DNA of 58,995 nucleotides from a virus (IMGVR_UViG_3300049222_000252:1-58995); one strand, 5' to 3'; numbered from the stretch's first letter, positions 24,149 to 33,640 are shown. A program made the numbers and translations. The notes: a model not told the origin generated them from the sequence alone.

Positions 24149-24907
24149 CTACAGATAATCAATCACTTGAGAGTGATCTACGTTATCGATAAGCTTTTGT
24201 ACAGCAGCCCGTTTAAGCTCGCTTACGCGTACATAATTGCTTGTACCTTCAATATTTAATTTAGCCGCGATATCTTTAGCTGAATACTTATCGCAGTCAA
24301 GTCCATAGCTTAAACGTAACACTTCATATTCTTTTTCATCTAAGTGTTTTTGTAATAAACTTTTCAGATAACTATTAAGCAAAGCTATATTATATGGCTC
24401 AGACTTATCTTGTATCTGGTGTATCATACTCTCGCCTTCGTCGTTTGAAGGTTGAGCATCTATTGATAAAAATATAGAGTTGAAAAACATTTCAACCATC
24501 TTTTTGTCTTTAGGATTTTTACGTATCTCGTTCATCTTATGCTCAGGTATACGTATATCGCCTCTGTGCATATCGATTCTACGACGTATTGCGCCTTTAA
24601 TACGTTTGCTGAAGAAACTTTTTAAAGTCTTTTCTATATCATCAGACTCTTCAAGAGTTTTCCACTCAAGCTTATCAACAGCTTTTACCAAAGCATAACC
24701 GCCTTCTTGTATTAGATCGTTAATACTAAGCACACCTGATGCTTGCTGCGTAGTTGAAAACTTACGTGCTAAATTTTCTACAAGAGGTAGAAACTTAACA
24801 ACAAGCTCATTACGCGTGTAATCTTTAAAATCCCAATTACCTTCAGGCATAGACCGTTTAAGATCTTCTTTGTATCTTATGTAGTTTTGTACATTGTACT
24901 TTTTCAT
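24149..24907 (-). CDS. Phage sigma-70 family factor (free sigma)
   Basis: Region 2: LPLVENLARKF...DLIQEG...AVDK...IKGAIRR...IRIP. Region 4: LDEKEYEVLRLSYGL...DIAAKL...RVSELKRAAVQKL. Confidence 0.92.
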   Translation of the reverse strand: MKKYNVQNYIRYKEDLKRSMPEGNWDFKDYTRNELVVKFLPLVENLARKFSTTQQASGVLSINDLIQEGGYALVKAVDKLEWKTLEESDDIEKTLKSFFSKRIKGAIRRRIDMHRGDIRIPEHKMNEIRKNPKDKKMVEMFFNSIFLSIDAQPSNDEGESMIHQIQDKSEPYNIALLNSYLKSLLQKHLDEKEYEVLRLSYGLDCDKYSAKDIAAKLNIEGTSNYVRVSELKRAAVQKLIDNVDHSQVIDYL

Positions 24908-27900: not shown

Positions 27901-28505
27901 TAGTGAAATATTAATCCTATTTTTTTGTTTTTACTAAACCATTTTGTTGCCATCAAATCAATGTTAGAAGCATCCACATAACCGTTAGATAACAGATCGC
28001 TATTAGTAGAAAATATTTTGGTGTGTCTATGTTTTCTTTCATTTATCATATGTTTTTGTTTGCCAGAATCACTAAATATAATATCGTAATTATCTGGTAA
28101 TGAAGTATTTAACATCATATCAACCATATTAGTATATGAATAAAACTTAACACTAGGATTTTGTTTAGCAATTGTTATCCACTTTTGTAGATATGCTTTG
28201 CTGTAGTAATCGCCAGAATCATGTACACGTACATAGTCTGGTTTCTTACGTTTTATTTCAGTGTTCATTGCGTCTACAAATTCGTCTGTCTTGCTTAGCT
28301 CATAGCGCTTTTCGAAAGCAGGTTTTACATTGCTCCAGATATATGCGCCTTTTTTAGCATAACAAAACTTTACACAGTCTTTAGCCATTGGGCATGTTAG
28401 TTTACCACTGGCTGATTTGTACGCAGGTATACCAAAGTTAAAAACTCTAACACCAAGTTCTTTACTTGTTTTCTTTAATTTAGTATTTTGTGTTAGTAAA
28501 TTCAC
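27900..28505 (-). CDS. Gp88-like protein (radical-SAM-like Cys cluster)
   Basis: NTKLKK, TCPMAKDCVKFCYA, RVHDSGDY, YSYT. Confidence 0.75.
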   Translation of the reverse strand: MNLLTQNTKLKKTSKELGVRVFNFGIPAYKSASGKLTCPMAKDCVKFCYAKKGAYIWSNVKPAFEKRYELSKTDEFVDAMNTEIKRKKPDYVRVHDSGDYYSKAYLQKWITIAKQNPSVKFYSYTNMVDMMLNTSLPDNYDIIFSDSGKQKHMINERKHRHTKIFSTNSDLLSNGYVDASNIDLMATKWFSKNKKIGLIFH

Positions 28506-28699
28506 AAGTTATTATCTAGTATATTAGTAATTTTATCTTCCATATCTACTATATCTTTAGCAAGCTCAAGTATAGTATCGAGACCTCTTAACTCTTCTTT
28601 GCTAAGGTCTACGTCTACATTTGTGTCGAATAGTGTATCGACTACATCTTGCATATCAATCGAGGTATTTTGATACCTGCAATAGCTCATATTTGGCAT
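28502..28699 (-). CDS. Hypothetical early protein (MPNMSYCRYQNT)
   Basis: 65-aa ORF directly downstream of tRNA-like element 1. Confidence 0.7.
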   Translation of the reverse strand: MPNMSYCRYQNTSIDMQDVVDTLFDTNVDVDLSKEELRGLDTILELAKDIVDMEDKITNILDNNL

Positions 28700-28719
28700 A
28701 ATTTATAATTTAAAGTTAG

Positions 28720-28810
28720 AAGGCGTGGCAGGAATCGAACCTGCCTAACATAGTGTAGGTTGCTCTTATTTGCATTTATCCTCAAACACACTACTGACCA
28801 TTTCACGCCT
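28720..28810 (-). ncRNA. tRNA-like element 1 (no D-stem; internal stem with 31-nt insert)
   Basis: AGGCGTG/CACGCCT acceptor stem, AAATGGTCA loop, GTAGTGT/ACACTAT stem, GCAGG-TTCGATT-CCTGC T-arm; intergenic. Confidence 0.8.
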
Positions 28811-28818
28811 GGTCCACA

Positions 28819-29085
28819 CTAATCTAATAGTGTCATGTAAGCTGACGGGTTTGCTACTCGAAACCAGTCTAAACCTTTGCGGTGATCGTTCATAATCTTT
28901 TGAGATCTGTAACCTGTGCTCTCTAGTATCATGGTTGCACCCATAATAAAGTCATACATACTAAGCTCATTTGCATTTAACTCTGCAGGTTCGCCTGTAA
29001 ATATGTTTTCTACTGTACCACCTTCTGGATATACATCTCCATTAAACCATTTCGGTAGTGGCTTCATCTGCGTTTTCGTACTCAT
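28819..29085 (-). CDS. Hypothetical early protein
   Basis: ORF ending NPSAYMTLLD; start uncertain. Confidence 0.65.
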   Translation of the reverse strand: MSTKTQMKPLPKWFNGDVYPEGGTVENIFTGEPAELNANELSMYDFIMGATMILESTGYRSQKIMNDHRKGLDWFRVANPSAYMTLLD

Positions 29086-29506
29086 ATCCTTGTTCTATTA
29101 GTTCGTTTTCTATTTTTTCTTTAATATCGTTTACCATATTTCTATAGGACTCTTCAACAGCGTCTATAAATGGGTGCCAATCTAAGTCGTCGATATACAT
29201 ATTGTAGCCTTCTTGTATTGCTTCTGCAATTTCATCTGACAAATCATTTTCATAGTAGTGTATATCTTCACCAACACAAATGCTGTCAGTGTTGTTAGTA
29301 GCAATAAACACTTCATAACCGTCTGCAGTTGTTTCAGAGTAGCAATAAAAATCAAAGTGTTTGTTAGTCCATTGGTCTGAAACTTCGCAGTCATAATGCT
29401 TTTCAAGCAAGTTCCAAGCTTTAGTTTCGTCCATATCGTGGTACTCTAAGTACCCTTTAGCCTCTAACTTATCAGTTATCAGCTTATCTGTTATTATTTT
29501 TGCCAT
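29042..29506 (-). CDS. Acidic early protein
   Basis: 154 aa, strongly Asp/Glu-rich. Confidence 0.7.
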   Translation of the reverse strand: MAKIITDKLITDKLEAKGYLEYHDMDETKAWNLLEKHYDCEVSDQWTNKHFDFYCYSETTADGYEVFIATNNTDSICVGEDIHYYENDLSDEIAEAIQEGYNMYIDDLDWHPFIDAVEESYRNMVNDIKEKIENELIEQGYEYENADEATTEMV

Positions 29507-29841
29507 TGTTTATTGTAGTAGTTTTTAAGTATATAATTGAATATAAAGTCAATACGGTTTTTTTCACCATATATCATCATACGTTTTCTGTTTGTCCAAG
29601 ATTTAAGCTCACCATACGTGCTTACAAACTTGTAAGGTACTTCGTAAGTTGGATTTATTTGATATCTTGCGTGGCAGTTTCTGTCAATCCTTACATAACC
29701 TGATTGATAAGAGGCTATTGTCACCTGCTTACCTCTTACCCTGTAAGGTAAAGCAAACTCTCTAGTGCCATTATTTCGCTGTTTAGGCGTCGTAATTTCC
29801 TCTACTCCCAAGTATTTCATCAGCGTAGTCGTATTTTCCAT
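29494..29841 (-). CDS. Hypothetical early protein
   Basis: 115-aa ORF in the packed operon. Confidence 0.65.
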   Translation of the reverse strand: MENTTTLMKYLGVEEITTPKQRNNGTREFALPYRVRGKQVTIASYQSGYVRIDRNCHARYQINPTYEVPYKFVSTYGELKSWTNRKRMMIYGEKNRIDFIFNYILKNYYNKQWQK

Positions 29842-30067
29842 AGTCTAATTCTATTAGTTTAAATATATAATTCCAAGTTTCTAGCTCACGCTTTGATGCG
29901 TCGAGACATAATTCTAGCTCATGAAGCGTTACAGCGCCTGTATTTTTGCGCTCAATATCATATTCTAACTTTCTAATCTCAATTTGTTTTGCATTGATTT
30001 TAGAAAAAGCTTTATCATGTGCTTTTAATTTAATTACTTCCTTCATAGTTGTCAAAGATTTCGTCAC
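29783..30067 (-). CDS. Hypothetical early protein
   Basis: Coiled-coil ORF; start probably MKEVIK. Confidence 0.55.
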   Translation of the reverse strand: MTKSLTTMKEVIKLKAHDKAFSKINAKQIEIRKLEYDIERKNTGAVTLHELELCLDASKRELETWNYIFKLIELDYGKYDYADEILGSRGNYDA

Positions 30068-30284
30068 CCCAAATGATTGAGATAGCTGATTGGTCTACAT
30101 AGCTCGTGTCAGAGAACATATGAACTCTTCTCATATCATCGATAGTTAGATCACCAATGAAGTATGTACTTTCAAGTTTGGCAATTACTTGCCTAACAGA
30201 TGAGCTGTATTTGCCTTCGTTTTCTTTGAGCTTAGCTCTAACTCTAGGCTTTAGCCTATTGTAAAGTGTAGGTATTTTAGTCAT
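30030..30284 (-). CDS. Hypothetical early protein
   Basis: 84-aa ORF directly downstream of tRNA-like element 2. Confidence 0.65.
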   Translation of the reverse strand: MTKIPTLYNRLKPRVRAKLKENEGKYSSSVRQVIAKLESTYFIGDLTIDDMRRVHMFSDTSYVDQSAISIIWGDEIFDNYEGSN

Positions 30285-30300
30285 ATTTATTTAATTTTAG

Positions 30301-30387
30301 TGGACGTGGCAGGAATCGAACCTGCGTTTGAAGCATTTGGACTCGGTAACCCGTTATTTATTCGCTTCATCTAACCATTTCACGCCC
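30301..30387 (-). ncRNA. tRNA-like element 2, tmRNA-TLD-like with G3.U70 and A73
   Basis: GGGCGTG/CACGTCC-A acceptor, AAATGGTTAGA loop, TGAAGC/GCTTCA stem, AAC-GCAGG-TTCGATT-CCTGC T-arm. Confidence 0.82.
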
Positions 30388-30390
30388 ATA

Positions 30391-30554
30391 AGGCAGCAGT
30401 TGCGGACTGGTAGTTAACTAGTATTGTCATTTATCCGCTCTTTCTGTTTTATTGAAGGTATGACTGAGACGCTCTAAGGAATACTCGTTCGATGAGTCTT
30501 ACACTCCGTTTCGTCTTAACCCTTTCAACTAACGTGACCAGTATGCCGCCGCCT
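30391..30554 (-). ncRNA. ~164-nt structured intergenic RNA
   Basis: Nested stems AGGCGGCGG/CTGCTGCCT, ACTGGT/ACCAGT, AGTTGA/TTAACT, AGACG/CGTCT, ACTC/GAGT; no track ORF. Confidence 0.6.
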
Positions 30555-30741
30555 ATTTACGTCGCCAAGACCTGTGTACACTTGCAGACACTTCTTGGCT
30601 GACGATTTGAATTGTATTGCCTGTTTTGTGCTCAATGATAGGTATATAGCTGTAAGTTTTAGCTGTTGAACAATCAACACAAGTGTTATATCCTAGTTTT
30701 TGTCGCACTGGGTGCACATCATTTCCGCATCTACAATACAT
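30553..30741 (-). CDS. Small zinc-finger protein (DksA/TraR-type Cys spacing)
   Basis: CRCG...R..LGYNTCVDCS. Confidence 0.7.
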   Translation of the reverse strand: MYCRCGNDVHPVRQKLGYNTCVDCSTAKTYSYIPIIEHKTGNTIQIVSQEVSASVHRSWRRK

Positions 30742-30756
30742 AATTTGTTTATTTTA

Positions 30757-30793
30757 TATTATTATCCAACGGTGTTCGTATTTTGTTTGTAAA
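30757..30793 (-). promoter_or_regulatory. Early promoter motif copy P5
   Basis: TTTACAAACAAAATAC-GAACACCGT-TGGATAATA upstream of ATG 30741. Confidence 0.8.
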
Positions 30794-30995
30794 GGATTTC
30801 AATAGTTTTACTAACCACTGCTTCCAATGCATCATAATAATCATCACCACTTAATTTATCTAGCGATGTACCATCAATAGCCCACTCTGCGTTTTGCATT
30901 AGTGTTTCTTTAGCTGTTGTAGCCATAAAATCTGCTACTTGCTCTATTTCTTTCATCTTACCCATATTAAAAGTAGTATATTTCGTTATCAGCAT
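30762..30995 (-). CDS. Hypothetical early protein (start probably MGKMKE)
   Basis: ORF track plus AT-rich leader. Confidence 0.6.
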   Translation of the reverse strand: MLITKYTTFNMGKMKEIEQVADFMATTAKETLMQNAEWAIDGTSLDKLSGDDYYDALEAVVSKTIEILYKQNTNTVG

Positions 30996-31212
30996 GAGAC
31001 ATCCAGTTCACTTCGTCTAGTCTATAACCTTCAGAGGTAATAAACTCTTCAAAGTCTTCAGTTTGAAATGAAGATAACTGCTCATCGTTGAAGTGATCTT
31101 GCAAGTCATACTGGTCGACAGTGCCATTAGCGTAGTCTAGTATTGTTAAATAGTGCATTTTTTTATTTGTTTTAGTTGTTCGACTGAATATTGTTTGCTC
31201 GTCTCGCGCCAC
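30967..31212 (-). CDS. Acidic hypothetical early protein (start probably MHYLTILDY)
   Basis: ORF track. Confidence 0.6.
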   Translation of the reverse strand: MARDEQTIFSRTTKTNKKMHYLTILDYANGTVDQYDLQDHFNDEQLSSFQTEDFEEFITSEGYRLDEVNWMSHADNEIYYF

Positions 31213-31403
31213 ATACGGTGGTGAGTGAACTTACGAGCTTTAGCAAAACTCGATTTCTGACTGTGTTTAATACGAGTGTATTCTTTGTCAGTTAGTCCAC
31301 TGCACCTGCCTTCGTGGGCAAACTTGCGTCTATGCTCCGCAGCTCGCTGTTTTCTCATGAACGAAGAGTATTCGCATAGCTCTTTCATAGTTGTTACGCC
31401 CAT
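31146..31403 (-). CDS. Basic hypothetical early protein
   Basis: ORF track; start probably MKELCEY. Confidence 0.55.
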   Translation of the reverse strand: MGVTTMKELCEYSSFMRKQRAAEHRRKFAHEGRCSGLTDKEYTRIKHSQKSSFAKARKFTHHRMWRETSKQYSVEQLKQIKKCTI

Positions 31404-31597
31404 GGGTTGTCTGATTTAGGTACATAGGTTAGACCTTTGTAGTTGAACCATTGATATATACCTTCTTGGATATCGCCATTACCGGTTAGTCTTTGTTTAA
31501 AGCCAAATGATGGAGGTAGATTACCTACACTGTAAGGTTTATAAATTTCGCCGTTAAGCTTGATTGTCTTATCAGATAAGAATTTGATTGATTGCAT
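31394..31597 (-). CDS. Hypothetical early protein
   Basis: 67-aa ORF immediately after promoter P4. Confidence 0.7.
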   Translation of the reverse strand: MQSIKFLSDKTIKLNGEIYKPYSVGNLPPSFGFKQRLTGNGDIQEGIYQWFNYKGLTYVPKSDNPWA

Positions 31598-31613
31598 AGT
31601 TTGTAATTGTTTA

Positions 31614-31650
31614 TTATATTATCCAGTAAGTGTCGTATTTTATTTGTAAT
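31614..31650 (-). promoter_or_regulatory. Early promoter motif copy P4
   Basis: ATTACAAATAAAATAC-GACACTTAC-TGGATAATA. Confidence 0.8.
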
Positions 31651-31783
31651 AATTTTGCTGCCATTGTGGAATACCTGAGTTATAGCGCTCATAATACTCA
31701 CGCTCAAACGCTTCTATTTGAGCTCTAGTTAGCTTTGCAAAAGTTAATCTAGTTCGTCTTCTTGTAGATTTGCTTCTATCCAT
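31640..31783 (-). CDS. Hypothetical peptide (47 aa)
   Basis: MDRSKSTRRRTRLTFAKLTRAQIEAFEREYYERYNSGIPQWQQNYYK; fills the gap before P4. Confidence 0.5.
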   Translation of the reverse strand: MDRSKSTRRRTRLTFAKLTRAQIEAFEREYYERYNSGIPQWQQNYYK

Positions 31784-31983
31784 TCGTTTTCTTCTTTTAG
31801 TACTTTATATTCTATTTTAACTATCAAGTCATTAAATAAATCTTGAGTAGTTTCACCGTCTTCTAAGTCACATTCATGAGTTACAAAGCTTAGTACTCTC
31901 TGTGATACGTGAGCCCAACCGTTTAAGTCGTATAGCTCAGCGAAGTAGTCTATTGTTTCTTCGTTCCAAGTAAATTCTTTCAT
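31744..31983 (-). CDS. Acidic hypothetical early protein
   Basis: Start MKEFTWNE within the track ORF. Confidence 0.6.
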   Translation of the reverse strand: MKEFTWNEETIDYFAELYDLNGWAHVSQRVLSFVTHECDLEDGETTQDLFNDLIVKIEYKVLKEENEWIEANLQEDELD

Positions 31984-32177
31984 ATTGTTTCTTTGTTTAT
32001 AGCTTCGAGCATTTGCTCTAACACCCATTTAATTTCTTTTATACTATTACCGCCTACTGTAGCTCCTTTAGATGTATATCCATTGATTTTACCATCTTCA
32101 CTGTAATATACTTCGTGTATTTGATAGAAATCATCTTCACCATCTTTAGTTTTAATTACTCTGTAGTTCCAACTCAT
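31980..32177 (-). CDS. Hypothetical protein (MSWNYRV... QIHEVYY type)
   Basis: Start MSWNYRVI within the track ORF. Confidence 0.7.
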   Translation of the reverse strand: MSWNYRVIKTKDGEDDFYQIHEVYYSEDGKINGYTSKGATVGGNSIKEIKWVLEQMLEAINKETI

Positions 32178-32178
32178 A

Positions 32179-32436
32179 TTAGTCGCCTTGATATCTAGTT
32201 GTGTCTGCATAATAAGCAGCAGCACTTGCAGTAGATAGCTCGCGACGGTATTCGTATAGCGCTCGGTTATCTAAGTAGTCATCGATTCTATGAATCATAT
32301 CTTGTTCTAGTTCTGTAGAGAACGATTGAATATGGTATGGGTGGAAGTTAAAATACTCGCATGAGTAACCACTTGCTTTGTTACCTTTATAGGTAGTCCA
32401 CTCGTGATATTCGTAAGGTATATTCCTGTGTTGCAT
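32179..32436 (-). CDS. Hypothetical early protein
   Basis: 85-aa ORF immediately after P3. Confidence 0.7.
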   Translation of the reverse strand: MQHRNIPYEYHEWTTYKGNKASGYSCEYFNFHPYHIQSFSTELEQDMIHRIDDYLDNRALYEYRRELSTASAAAYYADTTRYQGD

Positions 32437-32451
32437 AGTATTATTATTTTA

Positions 32452-32488
32452 TATTATTATCCAGTTAGTTTCGTATTTTATTTGTAAA
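32452..32488 (-). promoter_or_regulatory. Early promoter motif copy P3
   Basis: TTTACAAATAAAATAC-GAAACTAAC-TGGATAATA. Confidence 0.8.
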
Positions 32489-32624
32489 TACCAAAGTCTG
32501 CATCGAGCTTTCCGGTAATAAGACCGAAGATTAAGAAACCAATTCCTGATATTACCATTGTAGTTAAACCAATTGCAGTTGCATAAGTGATAGCCATGAT
32601 AGCTTTGTGAGTAAACTTTCTCAT
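32478..32624 (-). CDS. Small single-pass membrane peptide (48 aa)
   Basis: MRKFTHKAIMAITYATAIGLTTMVISGIGFLIFGLITGKLDADFGIYK. Confidence 0.6.
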   Translation of the reverse strand: MRKFTHKAIMAITYATAIGLTTMVISGIGFLIFGLITGKLDADFGIYK

Positions 32625-32755
32625 TTGTTAGTTGATTTATAGTAGTTAATTCTTTCTAATATTTCTTGTCTTTCTATAAGACCTTCCATTTGTTGTAGTA
32701 TGTCGCTTGACATATCTATCTGTTTCCCGTTAGGGCAAGTTAGTATATATTGCAT
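32621..32755 (-). CDS. Hypothetical peptide (44 aa)
   Basis: MQYILTCPNGKQIDMS..., 14 nt after tRNA-like element 3. Confidence 0.6.
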   Translation of the reverse strand: MQYILTCPNGKQIDMSSDILQQMEGLIERQEILERINYYKSTNK

Positions 32756-32769
32756 AGTTATTATTTTAG

Positions 32770-32810
32770 AAGTCACGGTGAGAATCGAACTCACATTAAC
32801 CATTGTGACT
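32770..32810 (-). ncRNA. tRNA-like element 3 (41-nt minihelix: acceptor stem + GG loop + T-arm)
   Basis: AGTCAC-AATGGTTAAT-GTGAG-TTCGATT-CTCAC-C-GTGACT-T. Confidence 0.75.
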
Positions 32811-32901
32811 AGTTTACCGCTTGCTCGTTTTATTTTATGTCGCTAAGGCGATAGCTCAACTACGACATTAGTTATACTGAATTTAAGCAGTTTGTTTCAA
32901 G

Positions 32902-33132
32902 TTATAGTACTTCAGCATTTTGTAGTACTTTTGGAACAGAAGTTGATGAAGTGTACGAGTTGTACTTTAACCAACATGATAAGTGTTCAAGATTTTCAGA
33001 CATTAGCTCATAAGCTTTATCATGATTGTATTTGAAAGTTTTGCCATTTTTGAATGTAACTTCGATGATAGCATTTTGATTGATTAGAGATTTACGAATG
33101 ACGAATCTTTTTGATTGAATTGAATTTTGCAT
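32902..33132 (-). CDS. First early gene, hypothetical
   Basis: 76-aa ORF after P2. Confidence 0.75.
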   Translation of the reverse strand: MQNSIQSKRFVIRKSLINQNAIIEVTFKNGKTFKYNHDKAYELMSENLEHLSCWLKYNSYTSSTSVPKVLQNAEVL

Positions 33133-33163
33133 AGTTATGAATTTAAGTATTTATATTTGTTTA

Positions 33164-33200
33164 TTATATTATCCAGTTGTTACTGTATTTTGTTTGTAAA
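33164..33200 (-). promoter_or_regulatory. Early promoter motif copy P2
   Basis: TTTACAAACAAAATAC-AGTAACAAC-TGGATAATA. Confidence 0.8.
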
Positions 33201-33290
33201 GAGTGTAGTTTTATTTATTACTAGTTTTTGTTAGGTAGTTATTACACTACACCTCTTTGTGTATAACTAATTAGTATTTGTTAGTTACAT

Positions 33291-33327
33291 TATTATTATC
33301 CAAATGGTGTTGTATTATGTCTGTAAA
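33291..33327 (-). promoter_or_regulatory. Early promoter motif copy P1
   Basis: TTTACAGACATAATAC-AACACCATT-TGGATAATA. Confidence 0.78.
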
Positions 33328-33329
33328 GT

Positions 33330-33640
33330 ATAATAATTAGCTTAGTAACATGTGTAGAAAAAGTCAAAACATTCTACGTAAATGGCTGAAAATCTGATAT
33401 ATATACGTAAAATTGTGGAAAAGTTGGGGGGCCCGGAAAAATTAAAAACGTTTTTGTAAATTGTTGATAATCAATAACATAGGGGGTAACACAAAACCCC
33501 TATATTTCTAACGTAATTTTTTCAGAACTGTGACATTAGGGTTATAAGTATATAGAGTAAGGGGCTATTGTCACACTTTTAACCATTTGTAAACAATCAC
33601 TTTCCTATGTAAGTATATAGAATATAAAAGAATTTAGAAA
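33330..33640. other. Non-coding divergence region (candidate origin / physical genome end)
   Basis: Strand switch point. Contains TACGTAAA direct repeats, a GGGGGGCCCGG tract, a TAGGGG/CCCCTA hairpin and palindrome B. Confidence 0.55.
33529..33575. promoter_or_regulatory. Palindromic site B (TGTGACA-N33-TGTCACA)
   Basis: Its reverse complement matches site A at 24 of 27 positions over the first arm. Confidence 0.7.

Follow-up and report, generated by a model that had tools for sequence, protein, structure and literature searches.

Introduction

Bacterial transfer-messenger RNA (tmRNA; SsrA, Rfam RF00023) combines a transfer RNA (tRNA)-like domain (TLD), with the pairs G1-C72, G2-C71 and G3·U70, A73, a stemless D-loop, helix 2 and a T-arm, with an mRNA-like domain, a tag frame and pseudoknots. 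G3·U70 and A73 are the determinants for alanyl-tRNA synthetase (AlaRS), which needs the G3·U70 pair; SmpB binds the TLD, and acceptor/T-arm top halves are substrates of RNase P, RNase Z and the CCA-adding enzyme. TLD-only tmRNAs have hitherto been a curiosity, found in one mycobacteriophage and a few organelles. The RNA of that phage, DS6A, was reportedly first tested by Mao and co-workers in 2009 (RNA Biol), as related by papers that cite the work. The tmRNA Website, Hudson et al. (2014, PMC4131195) and Nawrocki et al. (2025, PMC11915505) treat it as a TLD-only, or 'CDS-less', tmRNA, and in the one test reported, according to PMC4131195, chargeability was not needed for inhibition by this type. 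In plant mitochondria, t-elements and tRNA punctuation have been described with ends mapped experimentally (Forner et al. 2007, PMC1920247); there, non-canonical tRNA-like folds that keep the GGTTCRANYCC T-arm motif lie beside mRNA ends where RNase P/Z would cut, and real tRNAs do likewise elsewhere. Here, three D-stem-less tRNA-like elements are described from an uncultured virus (IMGVR_UViG_3300049222_000252), a 58,995-bp IMG/VR viral record which, as the whole stretch analyzed, is called the window. The elements are almost certainly real, selected structured RNAs, and one of them, element 2, very probably belongs to the TLD-only kind of tmRNA.

Structure of the Three Elements

All three elements are read on the − strand and were found exactly where a preliminary description of this DNA had placed them (Table 1). 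The parts it had listed as shared, namely an acceptor stem, an AATGGTYA segment, a T-arm with TTCGATT and a trailing CTAA after nucleotide 73 (N73), were borne out, with AATGGTYA placed behind the 5' strand of the acceptor and TTCGATT closed by a T-stem of 5 bp in every case; the T-arm motif GGTTCGATTC(C/T) was likewise found in all three. Element 1 has the acceptor AGGCGTG/CACGCCT, with A1-U72 and G3-C70, the D-loop AAATGGTCA, a central helix 2 (about 7 bp) that closes a loop of some 29 nt, the T-arm GCAGG-TTCGATT-CCTGC, and T (U) as N73 at 28720, followed by CTAA at 28719-28716. In element 2, the acceptor GGGCGTG/CACGTCC (G1-C72, G2-C71, G3·U70) is followed by the D-loop AAATGGTTA, a helix 2 (TGAAGC/GCTTCA) whose loop likewise measures about 29 nt, the linker AAC and a T-arm identical to that of element 1, and A is N73 at 30301, with CTAA at 30297-30300. 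The first 16 nt of elements 1 and 2 are nearly identical and their 3' halves are 86% identical, the differences falling at the identity positions (A1-U72, G3-C70 and U73 in element 1). Element 3 lacks helix 2 and consists of the D-loop ATGGTTAAT and the T-arm GTGAG-TTCGATT-CTCAC enclosed by an acceptor AGTCAC/GTGACT (U3-A70), with T (U) as N73 at 32770 and CTAA at 32766-32769. The AGTCAC stem previously proposed for it does pair, the necessary correction being that the seventh pair is an A·C mismatch, so that the acceptor has 6 bp.

In the window, three copies of the motif GTTCGATTC-N12-CTAA are present; none of 100 shuffles contains it. Minimum free energy folds (RNAfold) contained the acceptor and T-arm in all three elements, and the central helix in elements 1 and 2 as well, with folding z-scores of −1.9, −3.3 and −1.4 for elements 1, 2 and 3, respectively. 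A cloverleaf was sought in all three with these folds, ARAGORN and the Rfam tRNA model, and neither a D-stem nor a 7-nt anticodon loop was found; over the whole window, ARAGORN reported 0 tRNA or tmRNA genes and Rfam 0 families at gathering thresholds. The lack of a clean tRNA call had been expected, and the former designation of the elements as non-decoding tRNA mimics fits these results.

Element 2 and TLD-Only tmRNAs

In a permissive Rfam search, element 2 matched RF00023 with 35.5 bits at both model ends, about 326 middle positions being replaced by 43 nt. Ordinary tRNA-Ala genes cross-hit the tmRNA model at 27–28 bits, and the 35.5 bits of element 2 taken alone are therefore weak. The copies from the relatives L008 and L017 reached 64.9 and 51.0 bits, respectively, above the tmRNA gathering score of 47, and the D-loop of both (ACCTGGTATTGAC) is nearly the ACCGGTTTTGAC of a Bacteroidetes metagenome-assembled genome (MAG) tmRNA. 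Upstream, the L008 copy has the same flank as L003, and downstream the same flank as L060, two relatives with GGGCGTG-type copies, and it thus occupies the same position as those copies; this positional correspondence is established for the L008 copy only. The alanine identity set, G3·U70 with A73, is present in element 2, and the element would probably be alanylated and probably bind SmpB.

The likeness to SsrA tmRNA extends through the whole TLD (G1-C72, G2-C71, G3·U70, A73, stemless D-loop, helix 2 and T-arm) and, in the L008 type, to the D-loop. The element 2 type differs from it in having no mRNA-like domain, tag frame or pseudoknots, about 300 model positions being reduced to 11–43 nt (43 nt between the TLD halves of element 2), and in leaving CCA unencoded. 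The inner arms of relatives were inspected and held no consistent reading frame, and element 2, having neither mRNA-like domain nor tag frame, cannot tag proteins. A mini tag open reading frame (ORF) was considered, since GCGAATAAATAA, within the inner arm of element 2, could be read as Ala-Asn-Lys-stop, and was dropped because the arms of other members are unrelated and have no common frame; GCGAATAAATAA is also present in L004 and L037, whereas L008 has it outside the element.

The RNA of DS6A was located at JN698994.1 28478-28560 (L135:1501-1583), where it is unannotated in the record, and scored 43.2 bits, also under the Rfam cut-off. Both RNAs are phage-encoded, of similar length (83 nt in DS6A and 87 nt in element 2), and built from the same parts in the same order: a 7-bp acceptor with G3·U70, a stemless AATGGT D-loop, helix 2 with a short variable loop (20 nt in DS6A), a short linker ending in AC, and a TTCGATT T-arm, followed by A73 and then CTA rather than CCA, as in the family to which element 2 belongs. 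The tmRNA scores lie in a similar range as well (43.2 bits for DS6A, 35.5 for element 2 and 51–65 for the two relatives). Element 2 is thus a phage-encoded tmRNA TLD with helix 2 and nothing else, and is a new member of a kind that, though described, is obscure. The preliminary description had treated the whole set as lying outside known families; this did not hold for element 2, given that L008 and L017 pass RF00023 and that DS6A is built alike, and since that description had itself named a match to a known Rfam family as evidence against it, the novelty of this element is lowered. The differences from DS6A are nevertheless considerable. DS6A is an actinobacteriophage, whereas element 2 comes from a Bacteroidota-type marine podophage, belongs to a large family with a hypervariable inner arm (36–94+ nt) between frozen ends, lies 16 nt before a start codon inside an operon, and is accompanied by two non-alanine paralogues, one of them of 41 nt and without helix 2. 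Elements 1 and 3 are paralogues that have lost the alanine identity, element 3 having lost helix 2 too.

Occurrence and Conservation in Related Phages

Using as bait a gp88-like protein (PF17338) whose gene adjoins the region, 47 related loci were retrieved and oriented like the early genes. A covariance model (R1) was built from cleanly aligned sequences of 11 relatives, with acceptor and T-arm pairs only and with no sequence of the window, and yielded 41 matches over 794 kb, every one of them on the early-gene strand. Within the window, it matched exactly the three elements, with 59.3 bits for element 2, 46.2 bits (E 7e-8) for element 1 and 35.5 bits for element 3, the alignment at element 3 spanning 32766-32844, with a 5' boundary different from that of the 41-nt element. 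An exact 22-mer from the 3' end of element 2 was found in 64 IMG/VR stretches and an exact 26-mer of the minimal form of element 3 in 25; loci retrieved with the 22-mer (602 kb) contributed 114 further R1 matches, compared with 1 match in 466 kb of unrelated viral DNA. The 155 matches together represent 128 distinct sequences, 12 of which ARAGORN calls tRNA (Met-CAT, Gln-TTG and one evident mis-call). In GTDB (185,579 species genomes), the 22-mer was confined to 6 stretches, each of them from a MAG contig. An origin as a copy of a host tmRNA or tRNA end was rejected, these 6 stretches resembling binned phage DNA. The family to which the elements belong is conserved in uncultured marine podophages, relatives of the Flavobacterium and Cellulophaga phages. 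Literature searches returned no paper describing this flavobacterial-phage family, and both the three-member set, with its two non-alanine paralogues and a natural 41-nt form, and the distribution of the family, with its hypervariable inner arm, over marine podophages of the Bacteroidota type appear to be undescribed.

Family A, to which element 2 belongs, is represented by 72 distinct full copies of 67–148 nt. The acceptor is GGGCGTG/CACGTCC in 69 of the 72, G3·U70 is kept in 71 and A73 in all 72, and the trailer after A73 is CTA in 66 copies and CCA in 2. Most copies have the D-loop AAATGGTTAG, and (A/T)AAC is the usual linker to the T-arm. Between the two there is always a helix 2, which has 51 different 5' strands and a mean of 5.67 contiguous bp (3.44 in shuffled sequences), and which encloses an inner part of 9–90 nt that is wholly different even among close relatives. 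Family B, that of element 1, is also found in L119 and L114, with ends resembling those of family A apart from A1-U72 and U73, and with a compensatory T-stem ATAGG/CCTAT; the family B inner arm of L119 is homologous to that of the family A copy of L027, which indicates that family B arose from family A. The L027 copy (L027:2069-2165) is called by ARAGORN a 97-nt tRNA-Gln(ctg), and its G3·U70/A73 frame and inner arm are those of an anticodon-less family A member.

Family C, which includes element 3, exists with or without a central hairpin. Among 15 distinct sequences of the minimal form, 90% of cells were paired, against 63% after shuffling (0 of 500 shuffles reached the observed value), and both-side changes were observed in 12 of 12 pairs, slid-partner controls pairing in 31–48%; pair 7:66 was unpaired in 13 of the 15. 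Neither the sequence of the acceptor nor the base at N73 (A or U) is fixed, both being free to vary, which argues against any aminoacyl identity; selection acts on the top half and the elbow. The lack of decoding ability and the absence of the elements from many relatives would suit decaying, functionless pseudo-tRNAs. Against that reading, which is extremely improbable, stand the compensatory changes in all 12 minimal-family pairs, a helix 2 kept through 51 different sequences, ends invariant over 72 distinct family A copies, and exact motifs recurring in 64 IMG/VR stretches for family A and in 25 for family C. The structure is retained across many phages through compensatory changes, as the R1 matches, the covariation of family C and the helix 2 of family A show, and the elements are therefore not decaying pseudo-tRNAs.

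Several further occurrences were noted. Contigs of two Bacteroidetes MAGs and of one 'Aliivibrio sp.' MAG (L050-L055) carry family A and look like binned phage DNA. L055 and L122 each hold two family A copies about 100 nt apart, one copy of which encodes CCA. In the more distant relatives L041-L044, where the bait protein is 52–58% identical, a fourth type lies just downstream of the gp88-like gene, with the acceptor GTGAGTG/CACTCAC, A73-CTAA and a body of 95–116 nt. Only weak R1 matches, of 15.5 and 13.8 bits, were obtained in the cultured relative MW202828.1. Of 57 viral stretches with the pattern AGGCGTGAAATGGTNNG, 55 were new, and in none of these does R1 match at that place; these are chance-level hits, and the pattern scan is thus uninformative on the spread of family B.

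Genomic Setting of the Elements

The window has an estimated completeness of 92% and a G+C content of about 35%. Its large terminase is 44–61% identical to those of Flavobacterium 'elemo' podophages, Cellulophaga phages and one uncultured podovirus, which makes a Bacteroidota host of the Flavobacteriia type likely. The elements sit in the small-ORF early region of a − strand module that also holds primase-helicase, ribonucleotide reductase and ligase genes. Each ends 14–20 nt before a start codon (Table 1), as had been claimed, and the stop codon preceding element 1 is 8 nt away from it. Behind element 3, ORF calling extends the frame up to an ATG within the element; the inner ATG is likely the start, and is preferred by analogy with the ATGCAA starts behind early promoter repeats.

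Table 1. Coordinates of the elements and adjoining features in the window
Feature	Position	Strand	Remarks
Element 1 (family B)	28720..28810	-	91 nt including N73; 5' strand begins 28810, 3' strand ends 28721
Element 2 (family A)	30301..30387	-	87 nt including N73; GGGCGTG begins 30387, CACGTCC 30308-30302
Element 3 (family C, minimal form)	32770..32810	-	41 nt including N73; AGTCAC begins 32810, GTGACT ends 32771
Start codon, 65-aa ORF after element 1	28697..28699	-	ATG 20 nt past N73
Start codon, 84-aa ORF after element 2	30282..30284	-	ATG 16 nt past N73
Start codon (ATGCAATAT...), ORF after element 3	32753..32755	-	likely start; ATG 14 nt past N73
ORF-free, GC-richer stretch, about 164 nt	30391..30554	-	ends 3 nt before element 2; no Rfam match

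The same early-region slots hold real tRNA-Gln(TTG), tRNA-Thr(TGT) and tRNA-Met(CAT) genes in relatives (for example at L003:9660-9732, L010:8401-8473, L004:8418-8492 and L012:8603-8677), and the tRNA-Gln and tRNA-Met genes end in N73-CTA rather than CCA, which is not so for the tRNA-Thr of L004. The canonical phage tRNA-Met(CAT) and tRNA-Gln(TTG) thus resemble the three elements in slot, strand, N73-CTA trailer and distance to the ATG, and differ from them in that the elements have neither D-stem nor anticodon stem-loop and receive no ARAGORN or Rfam tRNA call. The slot of element 1, defined as the place behind the gene ending in ...AYM(T/V)LLD, was followed through 44 distinct related contexts, where it held tRNA-Met in 8, tRNA-Gln in 2, a tRNA-like element in 6 and neither of these kinds in 28. 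Where the arrangement is of the L004-L014 type (about 11 contexts), the same MPNMSYC gene follows directly, with neither tRNA nor tRNA-like element between. The elements thus behave as optional, accessory cassettes and not as required processing sites, and they have their landing sites, strand and trailer in common with real tRNA genes.

Over 140 elements, a count that includes true tRNAs, an ORF of at least 35 codons started within 30 nt after N73 in 86, compared with about 13% of random positions. The distance from N73 to the start codon peaks at 2 nt (N73-CT-ATG), as in 15 elements, and at 13–25 nt. This constant place just upstream of start codons could also be expected of uncleaved structures in the 5' untranslated region (5'-UTR) that stabilize the mRNA or aid initiation in a host without Shine-Dalgarno pairing. 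Real tRNA genes need excision by RNase P and a 3' nuclease to work, and their presence in the same slots with the same trailer speaks against uncleaved structures, as do the 15 elements whose ATG, 2 nt after N73, would be buried beside a stable helix; this explanation is accordingly very improbable.

The main rival of a function in trans is pure punctuation in cis, similar to that of the plant-mitochondrial t-elements, in which RNase P/Z would only cut, the released RNAs would have no task and G3·U70 would be a relic. All three elements have a tRNA-like fold with a conserved T-arm motif at cistron borders, as t-elements do, and those are a documented precedent (PMC1920247). The elements differ from that precedent in their phage setting, in being known here from sequence alone and in including one member with the full alanine/tmRNA identity set, for which t-elements have no need. 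In favor of punctuation, besides the start codons within 30 nt in 86 of 140 elements and 2 nt after position 73 in 15, the early promoter repeats also leave the ATG 14–30 nt downstream, real tRNAs and mimics are interchangeable in one slot, and the acceptor of the minimal family varies freely provided that pairing holds. Additionally, there are no terminators between the genes: none was found on the − strand of 28300-33400 in a scan for the intrinsic-terminator consensus, which may not fit Bacteroidota. The punctuation idea, already put forward in the preliminary description, thus agrees with the genomic layout (start-codon spacing, slots shared with tRNAs, no terminators). Punctuation explains the layout, but neither the frozen alanine-type acceptor of family A (GGGCGTG in 69 of 72, G3·U70 in 71 and A73 in 72), which a mere cutting signal would not need, nor a slot that is empty in 28 of 44 contexts. 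As the whole explanation it is considered unlikely.

Proposed Role

The best overall explanation, for which the chances are judged about even, is that the elements are excised TLD-like RNAs acting as tmRNA/tRNA top-half mimics. The elements would lie inside an early polycistronic transcript, where their stemless GG D-loop could lock onto the canonical T-loop, an optional helix 2 standing in for the anticodon arm; the host RNase P would cut at position 1 and RNase Z after N73, and CCA would then be added. Excision by the two enzymes is probable. It would release small stable RNAs, with the 14–20 nt leader of the next cistron as a by-product. The released RNAs would act as mimics by, for example, titrating SmpB, a function in trans that is proposed tentatively and to which somewhat less than an even chance is given. 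Element 2, alanylated and binding SmpB in competition with the host tmRNA, as has been proposed for the DS6A type, would dampen trans-translation or divert it. Elements 1 and 3, which could not be charged, would serve as decoys of the top half, as cutting signals, or in both capacities.

Several observations weigh against this explanation. The score of element 2 (35.5 bits) is below the Rfam tmRNA gathering score of 47, and five of the seven relatives' copies tested (L003, L005, L006, L010 and L028) are also under this cut-off. Elements 1 and 3 do not have the alanine identity (G3-C70 with U73 and U3-A70 with U73, respectively); the best Rfam match of element 1 is tRNA-Sec (19.1 bits, E 3.4), element 3 has no Rfam match up to an E value of 10, and SmpB binding by element 3, which has no helix 2, is doubtful. 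The slot of element 1 is without any element in 28 of 44 contexts, so cutting there is not needed to express the neighboring genes. A six-frame search of the window found no SmpB or CCA-enzyme families, and with neither protein of its own the phage would depend on host factors for everything. The cultured Flavobacterium phage elemoE_6-9C (32 kb) gave no R1 match. Finally, of 24 sequencing runs listed, all in the form of Logan contigs, none contained half of the sequence words sought; contigs from four RNA runs cover parts of the region, but contigs cannot show ends, strand or CCA, and a high summed depth at 30304 in one RNA run reflects many related contigs piling onto the conserved T-arm.

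The conservation of only the top half and elbow across all three families, the high turnover of accessory cassettes in the early region, and an acceptor stem and inner arm that diversify quickly, as targets of an arms race might, could also point to decoys for another tRNA-binding host factor, such as a defense toxin or sensor of the top half or elbow. The best known tRNA-targeting defenses are anticodon-directed nucleases, for which RNAs without an anticodon loop could not be decoys; moreover, no defense gene or counter-defense partner was linked to the elements in the analyses made, and the alanine identity would be left unexplained. Such decoys are improbable, and they are graded, together with uncleaved 5'-UTR structures and pseudo-tRNAs, as less likely.

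A more far-reaching version of the mimicry proposal combines it with punctuation. The early message would be cut to near-leaderless mRNAs by mitochondrion-like tRNA punctuation from anticodon-less, TLD-derived modules, and up to three mimics, one of them alanylatable, would draw SmpB, and possibly EF-Tu, from the host tmRNA, shutting down rescue and tagging, with an inner arm swappable under diversifying selection. This combination is speculative and regarded as quite unlikely.

If the elements are excised and bind SmpB, they would constitute a cheap, RNA-only phage switch-off of bacterial ribosome rescue; if they are mainly cutting signals, they would represent tRNA punctuation in a bacterial virus. 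In both cases, these genes are unannotated, and standard tRNA and tmRNA finders miss them. To the few TLD-only tmRNAs described, the window adds a whole set, with an alanine-type copy and two derived, presumably uncharged forms, the smallest of 41 nt, and the family from which this set comes is present in dozens of uncultured marine phages whose hosts are of the Bacteroidota type. The 41-nt form, a natural minimal tRNA elbow, may serve studies of RNase P, RNase Z and the CCA-adding enzyme.

Neighboring Features and Other Observations

A scan for the sigma-70 consensus, which may not fit Bacteroidota, gave promoter-like sites at chance level only. A promoter-like repeat, AAATAC(G/A)-...-TGGATAATA(A)TAT, was observed upstream of the − strand ATGs at 33132, 32436, 31597 and 30741, and such early repeats put the ATG of early ORFs 14–30 nt downstream. 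Of the 29 ORFs scanned (10 against PHROGs only and 19 against Pfam), none matched a tRNA-related family. A 252-aa ORF at 24149-24907 (−) showed weak matches to sigma-70 region 2 and region 4, both under the Pfam cut-offs, and may encode a phage sigma-like factor.

The ORF-free stretch adjoining element 2 (Table 1) may be a separate structured RNA, in which case RNase P, by cutting at element 2, would define its 3' end. In relatives, its place is taken by alternative upstream RNAs, many with a common TAAATGAC motif. Other relatives have there a larger tRNA-like element, referred to as 'family D' (T-arm and 3' strand CTAGTTA, with C as N73), which ends 2–4 nt before the family A element.

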